Source: a virus (taxonomy: Duplodnaviria > Heunggongvirae > Uroviricota > Caudoviricetes). Taken from it: 8,949 bases of DNA. The DNA is taken from IMG/VR virus record IMGVR_UViG_2713896828_000008; one strand, written 5' to 3'. Positions 1 to 8,949 of the stretch are shown here, in pieces. A program made the translations under genes and the position numbers. Position 1 is the stretch's first letter; the number at the start of each line of letters is the position of its first letter. The notes beneath the pieces were generated by a model. That model made no database searches and had not been told where the DNA came from. It saw only the letters and a list, made by a program, of their open reading frames with translations.

Positions 1-192
1 TCAGGAGCATTTCTGATTAACGCCACCGTTAAGAATCCACCCTTCAACAGCTTCACGAAGGTATGATTTGGGGTGGGTTCTGACTGGCTTCGGAAATCCG
101 TGTCGTTTGGTATAGTTCCAGATTGTCTGACGTGATGAAACACCGAGCTTGTTCATCACTTCTTTCTCAGGAATCAGGCTGGTATCGGTCAT
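1..192 (-). CDS. AlpA-family (P4/CP4-57 type) helix-turn-helix regulator / excisionase-like protein, 63 aa
   Basis: Complete minus-strand ORF: ATG at 192-190, stop at 3-1, GGAG about 8 nt upstream of the ATG. Translation MTDTSLIPEKEVMNKLGVSSRQTIWNYTKRHGFPKP...EAVEGWIL has the HTH followed by the FPKP...W..E.W pattern I associate with AlpA-type regulators. Family assignment is from memory, not a search. Confidence 0.55.
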   Translation of the reverse strand: MTDTSLIPEKEVMNKLGVSSRQTIWNYTKRHGFPKPVRTHPKSYLREAVEGWILNGGVNQKCS

Positions 193-204
193 CTTAATTC
201 TCCA

Positions 205-233
205 GGCAAAAAGAAACCGCCATCAGGCGGCTT
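205..233 (-). terminator. candidate intrinsic terminator on the minus strand between the zinc-ribbon gene and the AlpA-like gene
   Basis: On the minus strand, GC-rich hairpin (plus coordinates 217-221 CCGCC pairing with 226-230 GGCGG, loop ATCA) followed by the run UUCUUUUUG (plus 207-215). It lies only about 13 nt before the AlpA-like start codon, so it may act as an attenuator rather than a full stop. Confidence 0.35.
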
Positions 234-296
234 GGTGTTCTTTCAGTTCTTCAATTCGAATATTGGTTACATTGTTTTCATATATGAATAAATAAA

Positions 297-476
297 TTAG
301 CTTTTTTCGTTGCCTTCGCGTTCTTTATTAATTTTAACAAACTCGTTTTTACCACGCTCTCCAAATGCGTCTTTAGAGTCGTTGTATCCGCAATCGCAGC
401 ACACATAATCACCAGACCATCCACGCATTGTTTTTTCTTTTGCAATATTTCCAGAACCGCATTCTGGGCAAGACAT
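297..476 (-). CDS. small zinc-ribbon protein (CxxC-x19-CxxC), 59 aa, function unknown
   Basis: Hand translation of the minus strand: ATG at 476-474, TAA at 299-297, giving [59 protein letters not shown]. Missing from the ORF track only because it is under 60 aa. CPEC...CCDC spacing fits a zinc ribbon, with a Lys/Glu-rich tail. Confidence 0.55.
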
Positions 477-488
477 ATCACGAACCTG

Positions 489-1070
489 ATGAAAAAACTG
501 GAGACGATAGGATTCGACACCAAAAAAGACCTGCTTATCTCGGTTGGCGATTTGGTCGATCGCGGTACAGAGAACGTCGAATGCCTGGAATTAATCACAT
601 TCCCCTGGTTCAGAGCTGTACGTGGAAACCATGAGCAAATGATGATTGATGGCTTATCAGAGCGCGGAAACGTCAATCACTGGATGCTTAATGGCGGTGG
701 CTGGTTCTTTAATATCGATTACGACAAAGAAATTCTGGCTAAAGATCTTGCCCATAAAGCAGATGAACTTCCGTTAATCATCGAACTGGTGAGCAAAGAT
801 AAAAAATATGTCATCTGCCACGCCGATTATCCTTGTGACGAATACGAATTTGGAAAGCCAGTTGATCATCAGCAGGTAATCTGGAACCGCGAACGAATCA
901 GCAACTCACAAGACGGGATCGTGAAAGAAATTAAAGGCGCGGACACGTTCATCTTTGGTCATACGCCAGCAGTGAAACCACTCAAGTTTGCCAACCAGAT
1001 GTATATAGATACCGGCGCAGTGTTCTGCGGAAACCTCACATTGATTCAGGTACAGGGAGAAGGCGCATGA
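489..1070 (+). CDS. Ser/Thr protein phosphatase, lambda NinI (ORF221) type, 5'-truncated and possibly inactive
   Basis: 193-aa ORF with metallophosphatase motifs GDLVDRG and RGNHE and near-identity to lambda phosphatase as I recall it. The ORF starts at a position equivalent to about residue 29 of the lambda protein, so the N-terminal GDxHG metal-binding motif is absent. In-frame stop at 405-407 and non-phosphatase sequence upstream; no Shine-Dalgarno before the ATG at 489. Stop overlaps the Q start (ATGA at 1067-1070). Confidence 0.8.
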
Positions 1071-1690
1071 GACTCGAAAGCGTAGCTAAATTTCATTCGC
1101 CAAAAAGCCCGATGATGAGCGACTCACCACGGGCCACGGCTTCTGACTCTCTTTCCGGTACTGATGTGATGGCTGCTATGGGGATGGCGCAATCACAAGC
1201 CGGATTCGGAATGGCTGCATTCTGCGGTAAGCATGAACTCAGCCAGAACGACAAACAAAAGGCTATCAACTATCTGATGCAATTTGCACACAAGGTATCG
1301 GGGAAATACCGTGGTGTGGCAAAGCTCGAAGGAAATACTAAGGCAAAGGTACTGCAAGTGCTCGCAACATTCGCTTATGCGGATTATTGCCGTAGTGCCG
1401 CGACGCCGGGCGCAAGATGCAGAGATTGCCACGGTACAGGCCGTGCGGTTGATATAGCAAAAACAGAGCAGTGGGGGAGAGTTGTTGAGAAAGAGTGCGG
1501 AAGATGCAAAGGTGTCGGCTATTCAAGAATGCCAGCAAGCGCAGCATATCGCGCTGTAACGATTCTAATCCCAAACCTTACTCAACCCACATGGTCACGC
1601 ACTGTTAAGCCGCTGTATGACGCTCTGGTGGTGCAATGCCACAAAGAAGAGTCAATCGCAGACAACATTTTGAATTCGGTCACACGTTAG
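1067..1690 (+). CDS. Q: late-gene antiterminator Q (lambda type), 207 aa
   Basis: Full-length [31 protein letters not shown]... with zinc-binding CRDCHGTG...CGRCKG, essentially the lambda Q protein as recalled. Sits immediately upstream of a PR'-like promoter and the lysis cassette. Confidence 0.93.
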
Positions 1691-2447: not shown

Positions 2448-2907
2448 TCAACGTAAGGCGTTCCTCGATATGCTGGCGTGGTCAGAGGGAACTGATAACG
2501 GACGACAGAAAACCAGAAATCATGGTTATGACGTCATTGTTGGCGGAGAGCTATTCACTGATTACTCCGATCACCCTCGCAAACTTGTCACGCTAAACCC
2601 AAAACTCAAATCAACAGCAGCCGGACGTTACCAGCTTCTTTCCCGTTGGTGGGATGCCTACCGCAAGCAGCTTGGACTGAAAGACTTCTCTCCGAAAAGC
2701 CAGGACGCTGTGGCATTGCAGCAGATTAAGGAGCGTGGCGCTTTGCCGATGATTGATCGTGGTGATATTCGTCAGGCAATCGACCGTTGCAGCAATATCT
2801 GGGCTTCACTGCCTGGGGCTGGTTATGGTCAGTTCGAGCATAAGGCTGACAGCCTGATTGCAAAATTCAAAGAAGCAGGGGGAACGGTCAGAGAGATTGA
2901 GGTATGA
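2431..2907 (+). CDS. R: endolysin R (lambda-type lytic transglycosylase), 158 aa
   Basis: [51 protein letters not shown]... matches lambda R as recalled. Start overlaps the S end by 17 nt, as in lambda. Confidence 0.95.
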
Positions 2908-3341
2908 GCAGAGTCACCGCGATTATCTCCGCTCTGGTTATCTGCATCATCGTCTGTCTGTCATGGGCTGTTAATCATTACCGTGATAACGCCATCGCCT
3001 ATAAAGAACAGCGCGATAAAGCCACGTACATCATCGCTGACATGCAGAAGCGTCAACGTGATGTAGCAGAACTCGACGCCAGATACACAAAGGAGCTTGC
3101 TGATGCTAACGCGACTATCGAAAGTCTCCGTGCTGATGTTTCTGCTGGGCGTAAGCGCCTGCAAGTCGCCGCCACCTGTGCAAGGTCAACGACCAGAGCC
3201 AGCGGCATGGGCGATGGAGAAAGCCCAGGACTTACAGCAGATGCTGAACTCAATTATTACCGTCTCCGAAGTGGAATCGACAAGATAACCGCGCAGGTTA
3301 ACTACCTGCAGGAATACATCAGGATGCAATGCCTGAAATGA
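2904..3341 (+). CDS. Rz: i-spanin Rz, 145 aa
   Basis: N-terminal transmembrane segment ([18 protein letters not shown]) then a charged coiled-coil-like periplasmic domain. Start overlaps the R stop (ATGA at 2904-2907). More diverged from lambda Rz than S and R are from their lambda counterparts. Confidence 0.9.
3103..3288 (+). CDS. Rz1: o-spanin Rz1, lipoprotein embedded in the +1 frame of Rz
   Basis: ATG at 3103 preceded by AAGGAG at 3090-3095. Signal peptide [20 protein letters not shown] with a lipobox (VSAC), then a proline-rich mature region [14 protein letters not shown]. The track ORF 3097..3288 starts at an upstream TTG; the ATG at 3103 is preferred. Confidence 0.8.
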
Positions 3342-3377
3342 TCGGGCGATGAAAACCAAAAAAAACAGGAGCAATAC

Positions 3378-3653
3378 ATGACTAAGCTTTATCACCGCAT
3401 CTCAACTTTTCTCTCTGGTTGCTGGGCGTTTATCACGTCTATTTCGTTCGCCATCTTTAGTTTCGGTAGCACAGCGTGCTCGCTTAGTCGGGGTCTGTGG
3501 CGTGCTATTTCAGCACTAGCGCCGAAATTTTTACCTGAAAAGGCTGTTTGGCGAATTGTAGAGCGAATGTGTAGTGAGAGCGTTCGCGAGAAGATTAACG
3601 TATTTGGACGTCATCCTCGAAATACAGGCGCATTGTGCAGTCCGTTACTGTAG
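3378..3653 (+). CDS. hypothetical small protein, 91 aa, hydrophobic Cys-containing N-terminus (possible membrane or lipoprotein), function unknown
   Basis: Strong SD (CAGGAGCAATAC-ATG). N-terminus MTKLYHRISTFLSGCWAFITSISFAIFSFGSTAC is a basic n-region plus a long hydrophobic stretch ending in STAC. No recognisable similarity to lambda Bor, which occupies this position in lambda. Confidence 0.5.
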   Translation: MTKLYHRISTFLSGCWAFITSISFAIFSFGSTACSLSRGLWRAISALAPKFLPEKAVWRIVERMCSESVREKINVFGRHPRNTGALCSPLL

Positions 3654-3745
3654 TCATTCCAAATCCCATCTACGGGTGGGCTTGATAATGAAACCGTGAT
3701 TTACATCCCCACAATCCGGGTATGTAAAAGATAGTTCAGGCGAGA

Positions 3746-3765
3746 ACAGATTTAACTAAATCTGT
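3746..3765. repeat. perfect 20-bp palindrome ACAGATTTA-AC-TAAATCTGT, candidate operator for a dimeric DNA-binding protein
   Basis: Arms 3746-3754 and 3757-3765 are exact reverse complements (9 bp each, 2-bp spacer). It sits in a 283-bp intergenic gap, and no U-tract follows on either strand, so it is not a simple terminator. Confidence 0.5.
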
Positions 3766-3936
3766 GCACCACCAGTTGCGGCAGTACAGCGAAACAACCC
3801 AAGCCAGAAAGTGGGGAAATAACACTGGCAGCCACTGAAAGATGAACCTCCAGCCTTATGGCAAAAAAGATTCTTTGTGGTGGCGGACTGATGGAAAGAC
3901 ATCCTAATCAAGCAACCACTCTACAGGGTCATAATT

Positions 3937-4653: not shown

Positions 4654-5094
4654 ATGGCGCGCCCAACAAAGTATCAAGAGGCGTATGCCGAACAGGCACG
4701 CAAACTGTGCTTGCTGGGCTACACCGATGCAGAGCTTGCTGATTTCTTCGAAGTCAGTGAGTCAACTATTAACAAGTGGAAGCTCGATTATCCTAAGTTT
4801 TCGGAGTCCATAAAAAAGGGTAAGGCCGTCGCTGATGCAGAAGTTAGTGACCGTCTTTATCAACGCGCTATGGGCTTCGTGGCTCCAGACATCGATATTC
4901 GTGTTATTGAAAACAGAATTGTCGAAACTCCGCTTGAGAAGTATTACCCGCCTGATACAACAGCTGCCATCTTCTGGCTTAAGAACCGACAGAAGGATAA
5001 ATGGCGCGACAAGGTTGATCACGAGCTAACAGGCAAAGACGGCGGCGCAATTCAGATTGAAACATCACCGATGAGCACTCTATTCGGAAAATGA
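4654..5094 (+). CDS. terminase small subunit (TerS), putative, 146 aa
   Basis: Position immediately upstream of terL with ATGA overlap (5091-5094), SD GGAG upstream, HTH-like N-terminus (GYTDAELADFFEVSESTINKW), size typical of P22/Sf6-type small terminases. Confidence 0.6.
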   Translation: MARPTKYQEAYAEQARKLCLLGYTDAELADFFEVSESTINKWKLDYPKFSESIKKGKAVADAEVSDRLYQRAMGFVAPDIDIRVIENRIVETPLEKYYPPDTTAAIFWLKNRQKDKWRDKVDHELTGKDGGAIQIETSPMSTLFGK

Positions 5095-6314
5095 CCTCGA
5101 TTAATCCTATCTTTGAACCGTTCATTGAGGCGCATCGCTACAAAGTCGCCAAAGGCGGTCGAGGTAGCGGTAAGTCATGGGCAATTGCTAGGCTGCTTGT
5201 TGAAGCGGCGCGTCGTCAGCCAGTGCGTATTCTCTGCGCTCGTGAACTGCAAAACAGTATCAGCGATTCGGTAATCCGGTTGCTTGAAGATACCATCGAG
5301 CGGGAAGGGTATTCGGCTGAGTTTGAAATTCAGCGTTCAATGATTCGTCATCTCGGTACGAATGCTGAATTCATGTTCTACGGCATCAAAAACAACCCGA
5401 CGAAGATTAAATCGCTCGAAGGCATTGATATCTGCTGGGTGGAAGAAGCGGAAGCGGTAACGAAGGAATCATGGGATATCCTGATACCAACCATCCGCAA
5501 GCCGTTTTCCGAAATATGGGTGAGCTTTAACCCGAAAAACATCCTCGACGATACCTATCAGCGATTCGTCGTAAATCCTCCCGATGATATTTGTCTGCTG
5601 ACAGTGAACTACACCGACAACCCGCACTTTCCTGAAGTTCTCCGTCTGGAGATGGAAGAGTGTAAACGCAGAAATCCGACACTGTATCGTCACATCTGGC
5701 TTGGTGAGCCAGTAAGCGCAAGTGATATGGCAATCATCAAACGTGAATGGCATGAAGCCGCAACCGATGCGCACAAGAAACTCGGATGGAAAGCGAAAGG
5801 CGCTGTTGTCTCTGCGCATGACCCATCAGATACAGGGCCAGATGCTAAAGGTTATGCATCGCGTCACGGTTCGGTAGTTAAGCGCATTGCTGAAGGTCTG
5901 CTGATGGACATCAACGAGGGTGCTGACTGGGCTACTTCGCTGGCGATTGAAGACGGTGCTGACCACTACCTGTGGGATGGCGATGGCGTTGGTGCCGGGC
6001 TACGCAGACAGACAACGGAAGCGTTCTCCGGCAAGAAAATCACCGCCACGATGTTCAAGGGCAGCGAATCGCCATTCGATGAAGATGCTCCGTATCAGGC
6101 CGGAGCATGGGCTGATGAAGTAGTACAGGGCGACAACGTTCGCACTATTGGCGATGTGTTCCGCAATAAGCGAGCGCAATTCTATTACGCGCTGGCTGAC
6201 AGGCTGTATCTAACCTGCAGAAGCTTGGTAAGGTTGCTGATAACGAGACTATTTCAAAACTTCAGTCCTATCGTGATGAGCTTGTTCGCAATGCTGGTCC
6301 AGATGGTCCGGTAA
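5091..6314 (+). CDS. terminase large subunit (TerL), C-terminally disrupted; ATPase domain intact
   Basis: Walker A VAKGGRGSGKS and Walker B-like DICWVEEAE. N-terminus resembles P22/Sf6-type large terminases as recalled. The last ~30 codons (about 6215-6314, ...LTCRSLVRLLITRLFQNFSPIVMSLFAMLVQMVR) look like out-of-frame low-complexity sequence and the ORF is about 60-90 aa short of typical TerL length. Likely a pseudogene or truncated allele. Confidence 0.85.
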   Translation: MTSINPIFEPFIEAHRYKVAKGGRGSGKSWAIARLLVEAARRQPVRILCARELQNSISDSVIRLLEDTIEREGYSAEFEIQRSMIRHLGTNAEFMFYGIKNNPTKIKSLEGIDICWVEEAEAVTKESWDILIPTIRKPFSEIWVSFNPKNILDDTYQRFVVNPPDDICLLTVNYTDNPHFPEVLRLEMEECKRRNPTLYRHIWLGEPVSASDMAIIKREWHEAATDAHKKLGWKAKGAVVSAHDPSDTGPDAKGYASRHGSVVKRIAEGLLMDINEGADWATSLAIEDGADHYLWDGDGVGAGLRRQTTEAFSGKKITATMFKGSESPFDEDAPYQAGAWADEVVQGDNVRTIGDVFRNKRAQFYYALADRLYLTCRSLVRLLITRLFQNFSPIVMSLFAMLVQMVR

Positions 6315-6997
6315 ATCTGGATTTGAAGCAATTAAGCGATCTGCGCAGCCAGTTCAGAATGGACGTGAAGGGTGAGCGACCAGTGTTACCAAACCGTTCC
6401 GATGCTGCCATTCAGCGCGTTTACAAGGCAATGACTGACGATATCAATGGTGCCATTGGTCAGAATCTTGGCAACGATACTCTCCGTAAATATCAGCAGG
6501 CCAATGCCGTCTACGCTGACGAAGCGGCGAAGCTAAAGAATACCAGGCTGAAGAATGTTCTCATGAAAGGCGACCTGACGCCGGAAGTTGTCAACAACAT
6601 GCTATTCAGCAAGAACAAATCGGAAATTAAGACGCTGTATAACTCAGTTGGTCGTGTTGGCAGGGCGCAAATGCGCAATGGCATCATTGGAAAGGCGATG
6701 GAGAAATCTGGCGGATCCCCTGACCAGTTCCTTCGGCAGCTTAACATCCTGCAAAACCAGACTGGCATCACATTTAAGGGGCAGGACGCTGCTTATCTGA
6801 AAGGATTGAAAAAATACCTTCAGTCCACTCAGCAGGCAGCAAAAGCGGCAGTAACAACACCAACAGGGCAGCAAACCATCCCGTTCATTATCGGGTATGG
6901 GACGGCAACGAACCCGGCGACAACTGGCGCAGCAGTAAGCTACGGACTTCTTACTCGCGCCTATGAGAGCGAACCATTCAGAAATGCAATGCTCTGA
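6200..6997 (+). pseudogene. 5'-deleted fragment of an unrelated phage protein (virion, ejection or tail-associated; speculative) joined to truncated terL
   Basis: Frame-2 reading frame is open from 6200 with no plausible start or SD (first ATG at 6359; the track start at 6323 is a TTG). Translation ...LQKLGKVADNETISKLQSYRDELVRNAGPDGPVNLDLKQLSDLRSQF...GQQTIPFIIGYGTATNPATTGAAVSYGLL... is coiled-coil, Q/A/T-rich and not terminase-like. Confidence 0.4.
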
Positions 6998-7196
6998 ATG
7001 GCAAATACCCCACGCGGATCAACAGCGTTTGAGAAAGCCTTGCAGCAGGCACAAAAGGCAATTAACGCGCTGACCCAAGGCGCTAAGTCTGATGCGTTGT
7101 CTGAATAGTTTCGAAAACACCAGGAACGTGCAAAAACCAAATATGTAGAACGCAATATTCAACAGATCTCTTTGCATAGACTCATCTCATAATTAA

Positions 7197-8949
<1,753 letters not shown>

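Follow-up and report, generated by a model that had tools for sequence, protein, structure and literature searches.

The first 476 nucleotides of the window (the whole stretch of 8,949 nucleotides analyzed here) very probably represent the left-arm end of a defective P22-like prophage (Lederbergvirus, similar to Sf101 and HK620), which is inserted in sbcB and has been reshaped by an internal deletion. The whole locus is known lambdoid and P22-like biology: an Xis/Int pair of the phi24B type, the eaG gene of P22 and the t'I terminator of lambda. Two minus-strand genes, xis and eaG, abut the ninI-Q late region because an internal deletion has removed about 14 kb of early genes. The sequence-only reading had considered these two genes as a small regulatory module imported from a different mobile element. 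Their odd position beside a lambda-type late region is due to this deletion, which has fused the 5' untranslated region of eaG into ninI.

The features of the locus are shown in Table 1. Our ORF and terminator scans agree with the earlier description: Both minus-strand ORFs are intact, with a predicted terminator between them. Gene identities, architecture, the deletion junction and the linkage counts are direct results of the comparisons described below.

Table 1. Features of the left end of the window and of the matching prophage. Positions are those of the window unless a segment of strain KBN10P04869 is given.
Feature	Position	Strand	Description
int, 3' end (..RSISD*)	1..20	+	Last 20 nt of a tyrosine integrase gene which converges on xis and overlaps its 3' end; the remainder of int lies left of the window
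xis	1..192	-	63 aa, complete from ATG to TGA; predicted excisionase (recombination directionality factor) with a winged helix, of the phi24B/2851/Sf101 type and distantly similar to AlpA
Shine-Dalgarno sequence of xis	200..203	-	GGAG, 7 nt upstream of the ATG; read from the minus strand: CCTGGAGAATTAAGATG
Conserved lambdoid block containing t'I	203..270	-	68 bp, equivalent to lambda 29098-29165, 95.6% identity
t'I-type intrinsic terminator, predicted	204..233	-	8-bp stem with 5 G-C pairs, loop TGAT, T-rich tail; from scan and folding
eaG (HK620 hkaD)	297..476	-	59 aa, early-left "ea" accessory gene; zinc ribbon and Lys/Glu-rich tail
Deletion junction	477..481		Last 5 nt of the eaG 5' untranslated region joined to internal ninI; CAC at 479-481 present in both parents
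ninI remnant, 5'-truncated, then Q	479..1070	+	Ser/Thr phosphatase; 96-99% identity to ninI of HK544 and lambda
att cores of KBN10P04869	segment L001 10615-10627 and segment L010 10771-10783		Both intact; remnant span about 20.8 kb

A decayed prophage in sbcB

A search of 5,426 complete Escherichia coli genomes shows that window positions 1-1100 are 100% identical to 50 chromosomes, for example that of strain KBN10P04869 (NZ_CP026473). The order of genes in this chromosome is sbcB, attL core, int (+), xis (-), eaG (-), truncated ninI (+), Q, S, R, Rz and terminase. The late part contains Q, holin, endolysin, Rz and P22-like terminase genes, with an IS100 inside the tailspike gene. RefSeq labels int as a pseudogene, eaG as "Eag protein" and ninI as a metallophosphoesterase "missing N-terminus". 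The late region of the window matches P22-like phages of the HK620, CUS-3 and Kapi1 type at 94-97%. An Rfam scan of the entire window gives no match.

Phages 2851 and Sf101 have a 13-bp attP core, CGTAATCGTGAAA, and their integration site is sbcB (PMC4159516). KBN10P04869 contains one copy of this core inside the 5' end of sbcB and another just before dacD, about 20.8 kb apart. Since the core is found at both ends of the remnant, the window covers the left portion of a prophage which has decayed in the sbcB site. Further satellite-type genes, which might have been expected from the earlier proposal, are not found: The neighbors are lambdoid and the only att cores are the pair at sbcB and dacD, which delimits the whole prophage.

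The sequence-only reading had proposed to look for an integrase immediately left of the window, and there is one in NZ_CP026473. The gene (segment L001 10842-12020, plus strand) overlaps xis (12001-12192, minus strand) by 20 bp. This integrase is not a co-transcribed downstream partner of the AlpA-like gene, since the two genes are convergent. The translation from KBN10P04869, the one matching genome used here, ends in ...HIRSISD* and is interrupted by a stop at codon 68, which in Sf101 codes for Q. The cognate Int, of the Sf101 type, is 57% identical to that of phi24B.

The junction between eaG and ninI

Phage matches to ninI and Q start at window position 479, and those on the eaG side stop at 481. 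We have aligned the junction with Sf101, HK620 and P22 upstream of eaG, and with ninI of HK544. The parental sequence on the eaG side is ...GACATATCAC followed by TACCTCC..., and on the ninI side it is ...GATGCTACAC followed by GAACCTG...; they are joined at CAC. The native GGAGG Shine-Dalgarno sequence of eaG has been lost at the junction, with ninI antisense sequence in its place, and only a weak AGG is left 8 nt upstream of the eaG ATG. The ninI remnant has lost its first 25 codons approximately, and the NCBIfam profile, of 218 positions, matches it from position 33 onwards. The remnant still yields a 193 amino acid ORF from an internal ATG (489-1070), which PGAP annotates as a partial pseudogene.

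In the Sf101 record, eaG ends at 20346 and the match to ninI starts at 34323. The lost interval would thus correspond to about 20.35-34.32 kb, a size of about 14 kb which presupposes an Sf101-like ancestor. This interval contains in Sf101 the ea and recombination genes, pL and N, the immunity region, the replication genes and most nin genes. An illegitimate deletion, with the CAC microhomology, has very probably run from the ribosome-binding site of eaG through pL, N, cI, cro, the replication and the nin genes up to codon 25, approximately, of ninI. The boundary between eaG and ninI is an internal deletion, not foreign DNA inserted into the late region.

The terminator between xis and eaG

A scan of positions 1-1200 finds five terminator-like sites, when 1.1 are expected from shuffled sequences. 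The hairpin which lies between the two genes reads, in the minus strand, AAGCCGCC-TGAT-GGCGGTTT (233-214), followed by CTTTTTGCCT. The P22 record L06296 names the same hairpin t'I on the grounds of its identity with lambda, and in HK140 it is labeled as a rho-independent terminator, so we identify it as a predicted t'I terminator of the lambda type.

The t'I block is found directly upstream of the xis start both in lambda and in the window. On the other hand, lambda has the cII-activated pI site (TTGCN6TTGC) after the hairpin. We have searched for this site in positions 1-700 and have found none, which fits an int gene transcribed independently from the other side.

The 68-bp block which contains t'I is by far the commonest piece of the region: By itself, it has matches in about 2,500 of the 5,426 complete E. 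coli genomes, and lambda and phage 86 carry it as well. Matches to the phages which share the eaG side (Sf101, HK620 and P22) begin at 203-207. The match to HK140, which shares the xis side and has a different upstream gene, stops at 270. The block coincides with the points where similarity between phages breaks, which suggests that it is a recombination joint between modules, used repeatedly in the mosaic to connect ea-region modules to xis modules.

The excisionase gene

The 63 amino acid ORF is a real gene and not a chance ORF, as judged by its homologues in phages of E. coli, Klebsiella, Cronobacter, Salmonella, Proteus and Hafnia, with identities of 42-100%. A tblastn search of phage genomes finds it in 167 records. 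Identical proteins (100%) are coded by Sf101, HK544, mEp234, APC_JM3.2 and several Stx phages, including 1717. Homologues with 42-67% identity are found in phages of Cronobacter, Klebsiella, Salmonella, Proteus and Hafnia. Phage 86 and many Stx2a phages show 46.6% identity (tblastn E = 3e-10), and some of these records call the protein Xis or excisionase. Among the annotated records listed, most have an integrase under the match, as expected from an ORF which overlaps the 3' end of int.

The closest characterized homologue is the Xis of phi24B (HM208303), with 47% identity over 58 amino acids in a pairwise comparison (E = 4e-19). The integrase gene of phi24B has the opposite orientation to that of lambda, and its expression does not depend on CI (Fogg et al. 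2011, NAR, PMC3064807). An ORF of about 8 kDa, located beside the 3' end of int in the orientation of lambda xis, was found to be a distant relative of AlpA (HHpred 5e-6), and to be a functional excisionase: Excision took place when it was produced together with Int from one plasmid construct; its sole close relative then known was an ORF of phage 86 (PMC3064807). Considering the 47% identity to this validated excisionase and the convergent int gene adjoining it, the 63 amino acid protein is predicted to be the prophage's own Xis and not an import.

The description of the protein as AlpA-like holds at the level of the superfamily, that of AlpA and the excisionases with a winged helix. PHROG_66, "excisionase and transcriptional regulator", matches the protein with E = 1.9e-8. 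The claim does not stand at the level of the family: The Pfam profile Phage_AlpA (PF05930) gives 17.8 bits (E = 0.0032), under its gathering threshold of 21 bits, and HTH_17 is also under threshold. A homologue with 73% identity, P0011, has a precomputed PF05930 hit. Taken together, the low Phage_AlpA score and the hit of P0011 indicate that the relation to AlpA is distant.

Structure prediction agrees with this placement. The AlphaFold2 model, based on an alignment of 12 sequences, has a pLDDT of 84.5 and shows a strand (residues 6-8), two helices (9-16 and 21-31), a beta wing (43-45) and a C-terminal helix (46-54), the topology of a winged helix. The best fold matches are the DNA-binding domains of RacA, BldC, CarH and MerR, with probabilities up to 0.97; excisionases are also matched, namely RdfS (TM 0.60), the Xis of Pukovnik and a putative excisionase from Klebsiella. 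The E-values of this fold search are weak (0.03-0.7), as would be expected for a protein of 63 residues. When the PDB is searched by sequence, either with Xis alone or with a profile of 12 sequences, all matches are insignificant, so the fold search was required for placing the protein. PADLOC gives only a weak generic HTH hit (mad1, E = 3.7e-4).

The RefSeq label of this gene, "helix-turn-helix transcriptional regulator", can be replaced, by homology, with the name of excisionase of the integration module specific for sbcB (2851/Sf101 type). The protein would be a putative excisionase which directs its cognate tyrosine integrase, an activity demonstrated only for the 47% identical Xis of phi24B.

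Related phages

The same int-xis pair is found at the left end of complete phages of the lambdoid and P22-like groups: Sf101, HK140, HK544, mEp234 and Stx phages. The closest relatives are Sf101 (gp18/gp19/gp20), HK140 (gp29/gp30) and modules of the 2851 type, whose Xis is 100% identical to that of the window, with DNA identities of 97-99.6%. In Sf101 and HK140 the layout of int and xis is as in the window, and every gene of the pL side lies in the same strand as xis. The attP core and the sbcB site are shared between the Sf101/2851-type modules and the prophage of the window. One difference is that Sf101 and HK140 are complete phages with an early region, which the prophage lacks. HK140 also differs in having a gene similar to lambda orf-55 where the window has eaG.

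In Sf101, in turn, eaG and xis are separated by an insert of 294 bp, with a t'I-like hairpin on each side. This insert (segment L002 3724-4017, minus strand) contains an unannotated ORF of about 71 amino acids with a hydrophobic N-terminus, MAAIHIVSIICNAIQIVACIIFVFSIL... The Sf101 paper (PMC4159516) considers the insert as non-coding; it looks like a small moron. An excisionase is not discussed in that paper (PMC4159516).

The phi24B record shows int at 236-1405 (+) and xis at 1389-1571 (-). As in the window, an Xis of about 60 amino acids is coded in the orientation of the pL operon, with an inverted convergent int; the overlap is 17 bp, as compared with 20 bp in the window. On the other hand, the attB site of phi24B differs from that of the window module, which is sbcB, as in phages 2851 and Sf101. 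Also, the remnant in the window has an int pseudogene and its pL operon is deleted, unlike phi24B.

Control of the excisionase and present state of the locus

The activity of Xis, its control through pL and t'I and the present silence of the locus are what we infer. In the intact phage, judging from phi24B and lambda, Int would be made from its own promoter near attP, rightward and irrespective of the repressor. The inverted int converges on xis, with overlapping 3' ends, and xis would stay in the last position of the leftward pL operon, after t'I. In this position, Xis would be made only from pL transcripts antiterminated by N, after induction. By homology with the Xis of phi24B, and by analogy with lambda Xis and TorI, the protein would bind and bend the DNA of the att arm beside the core, turning Int towards excision (attL x attR) and blocking re-integration.

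The 63 amino acid protein might instead be mainly a transcription factor, either like the AlpA of CP4-57, which promotes excision by activating int, or like TorI, which also inhibits a host response regulator (as summarized in PMC3064807). The distant similarity to the AlpA family would agree with such a role, and so would the fact that xis is intact although the int gene of the prophage is dead. We consider it improbable. The Xis of phi24B drove excision together with Int (PMC3064807). The int gene is convergent and its promoter would lie about 1.2 kb away, on the attP side, so that xis is not positioned to act on an adjacent int promoter. As for its conservation, an intact xis in 50 identical genomes reflects clonality, not selection. 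Proteins of the AlpA family resemble Xis in their winged-helix HTH fold and in taking part in excision, but the score of Xis is under the cut-off for Phage_AlpA. An architectural excisionase thus remains the preferred explanation.

The module is probably inert today, given the nonsense codon in int and the survival of both att cores in the matching genome. A crude scan of positions 1-1200 in both strands has found no sigma-70-like promoter. The truncated large terminase gene and the IS100 in the tailspike gene, farther right, point in the same direction. Considering the loss of pL and N and of the eaG Shine-Dalgarno sequence, together with the int nonsense codon, xis, t'I and eaG are most likely no longer transcribed, as a fossil left by a prophage which is locked in its site. 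Some antisense transcription by read-through may still take place. The locus illustrates clearly how a lambdoid prophage can be fixed by an internal deletion and a nonsense mutation in int, while keeping both att cores. Beyond annotation, it has little significance.

The eaG gene

The protein coded by eaG reads MSCPECGS...CCDCGY..., with its cysteines in the arrangement CPEC...CCDC, followed by a tail rich in Lys and Glu. Window positions 207-481 are 96.4% identical in nucleotide sequence to P22 eaG and 98.2% to HK620 hkaD, and this similarity includes the downstream t'I block. The native ribosome-binding site and the upstream sequence of these two genes are missing in the window. Equivalents are found in many P22-like and lambdoid phages. 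The profile phrog_2945 matches the protein with E = 8.2e-31, and the homologues, with 35-97% identity, have an invariant core CPxCGS...GDYxCxxC, so the 59 amino acid ORF is a real gene and not a chance ORF. An exhaustive HMMER pass through 1.84 billion representative proteins finds just 16 relatives, which have in common the motif CPxCGS-x4-K-x7-GDYxCxxC. Homologues retrieved by a word index are mostly frameshifted or mis-called variants, and we have not counted them as true diversity.

No family reaches its cut-off in Pfam or NCBIfam. Lar_restr_allev (PF14354) gives 21.8 bits, with a cut-off of 28.6, and TIGR03655 gives 14.4, with a cut-off of 39.6; the HVO_2753 and TFIIB ribbon families are also under threshold. 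When the 16 relatives are scanned against Pfam, several generic ribbon families match equally, Lar included, all of them below cut-off. PADLOC finds nothing and a sequence search of the PDB gives insignificant matches only. The AlphaFold2 model, of mediocre quality (pLDDT 69), has the form of a generic zinc ribbon with four cysteines, and its fold matches include ribbons associated with RNA polymerase. A literature search on the function of eaG found nothing specific.

The sequence-only reading had mentioned the Ogr/Delta class of small cysteine proteins, used as transcription factors by satellite phages, while noting that the zinc-ribbon protein does not resemble them in sequence. Such a role finds no backing: These Pfam and NCBIfam searches give no hit to Ogr/Delta (of P2 and P4) at E <= 1, the folds matched are those of generic ribbons, and the context is a lambdoid ea region. 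The four-cysteine arrangement is the only feature which EaG has in common with Ogr/Delta. Neither xis nor eaG, compared here with AlpA and Ogr/Delta, is found in a satellite context.

Two other roles may be considered. One is that EaG is an early counter-defence or RNA polymerase-binding factor, the other that the intact Xis has been co-opted as a host regulator, like TorI; even taken jointly, they are quite unlikely. All the support for them consists of a generic fold resemblance and of the intactness of the genes in a clonal lineage. It is also very doubtful that eaG codes for a functional factor, either an anti-restriction or anti-defence protein similar to Lar or a zinc ribbon related to transcription, which cooperates with Xis. 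Lambdoid early-left accessory regions often carry counter-defence genes, and the sub-threshold hits to Lar_restr_allev and to TFIIB-type ribbons, as well as the fold matches to RNA polymerase-associated ribbons, would be in line with this possibility. Nevertheless, with all families below cut-off and no PADLOC hit, these matches are those of any four-cysteine ribbon, and the eaG of the window has lost its Shine-Dalgarno sequence and its promoter. In addition, the gene which follows eaG and t'I varies: It is eaC in P22, a TorI-like xis in HK620 and the present xis in the window. With three unrelated downstream neighbors, there is no signal of cooperation with Xis. EaG has a very narrow distribution, always just before t'I. 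An experimental test of EaG in P22 or HK620 would cost little.

Linkage of xis and eaG

If xis and eaG were a module, they should be found together. The DNA of xis is present in 536 of the 5,426 complete E. coli genomes (among the matches listed, nearly all have an integrase under the match), and that of eaG in 329. They are adjacent, which we define as one place covering at least 80% of window positions 1-480, in only 95 genomes, and 50 of these 95 carry the junction to ninI. In the phage collection, Sf101 is the only one with both eaG and xis, and there the 294-bp insert separates them. The linkage implied by the sequence-only reading is not conserved, an outcome which that reading had itself named as a refutation: xis and eaG are not a conserved pair, and it is by chance that eaG occupies the last place among the ea genes, just before t'I.

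An imported module, inserted into the late region from a satellite (P4-like or PICI) or another integrative element, is extremely unlikely. In its favor, satellites typically have genes of the AlpA family and integrases of the P4 type, the phage 86 and phi24B records both describe their integrase as P4-like, and PICIs embedded in prophage late genes are known (PMC10111431). Against it, int-xis is found at the end of the prophage, beside the attL core in sbcB and not within a late gene, and complete phages have it as their resident module for integration; the sequences of eaG and t'I are those of lambdoid phages and P22, with 96-98% identity; ninI is joined through a simple deletion, with a 3-bp microhomology and no att-like repeat; and the two genes are seldom adjacent in the genomes which carry them. 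A satellite embedded in its helper (PMC10111431) was also considered, and the genomic context rules it out.

Other features of the window

A second internal loss is found in the late region (5091-7380), where the portal and head genes are absent. The large terminase gene, of the PBSX family, lacks its C-terminus (it extends to about 6230) and runs into an N-terminally truncated gene with a lytic transglycosylase domain and an internal stop (about 6206-7108), after which there is a 108-nt tailspike fragment (7273-7380). The end of the window, from about 7400 to 8949, is occupied by the IS100 (IS21 family; istA at 7415-8437 and the start of istB) in the tailspike gene. In the matching genome, copies of IS421, IS66 and IS3 and an acyltransferase/GDSL esterase pair are found between IS100 and attR.

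A 63 amino acid ORF at 3097-3288 (+) lies out of frame within Rz (2904-3341), with a lipobox-like LLGVSAC. It looks like the Rz1 outer-membrane spanin, and is present without annotation in the RefSeq match. Finally, the region between Rz and a Gp49-family gene (3342-3936) has about 600 bp without any annotated gene in the matching genome, and contains only a 91 amino acid ORF (3378-3653). In related phages, Rha or KilA-N genes are found near the corresponding position.
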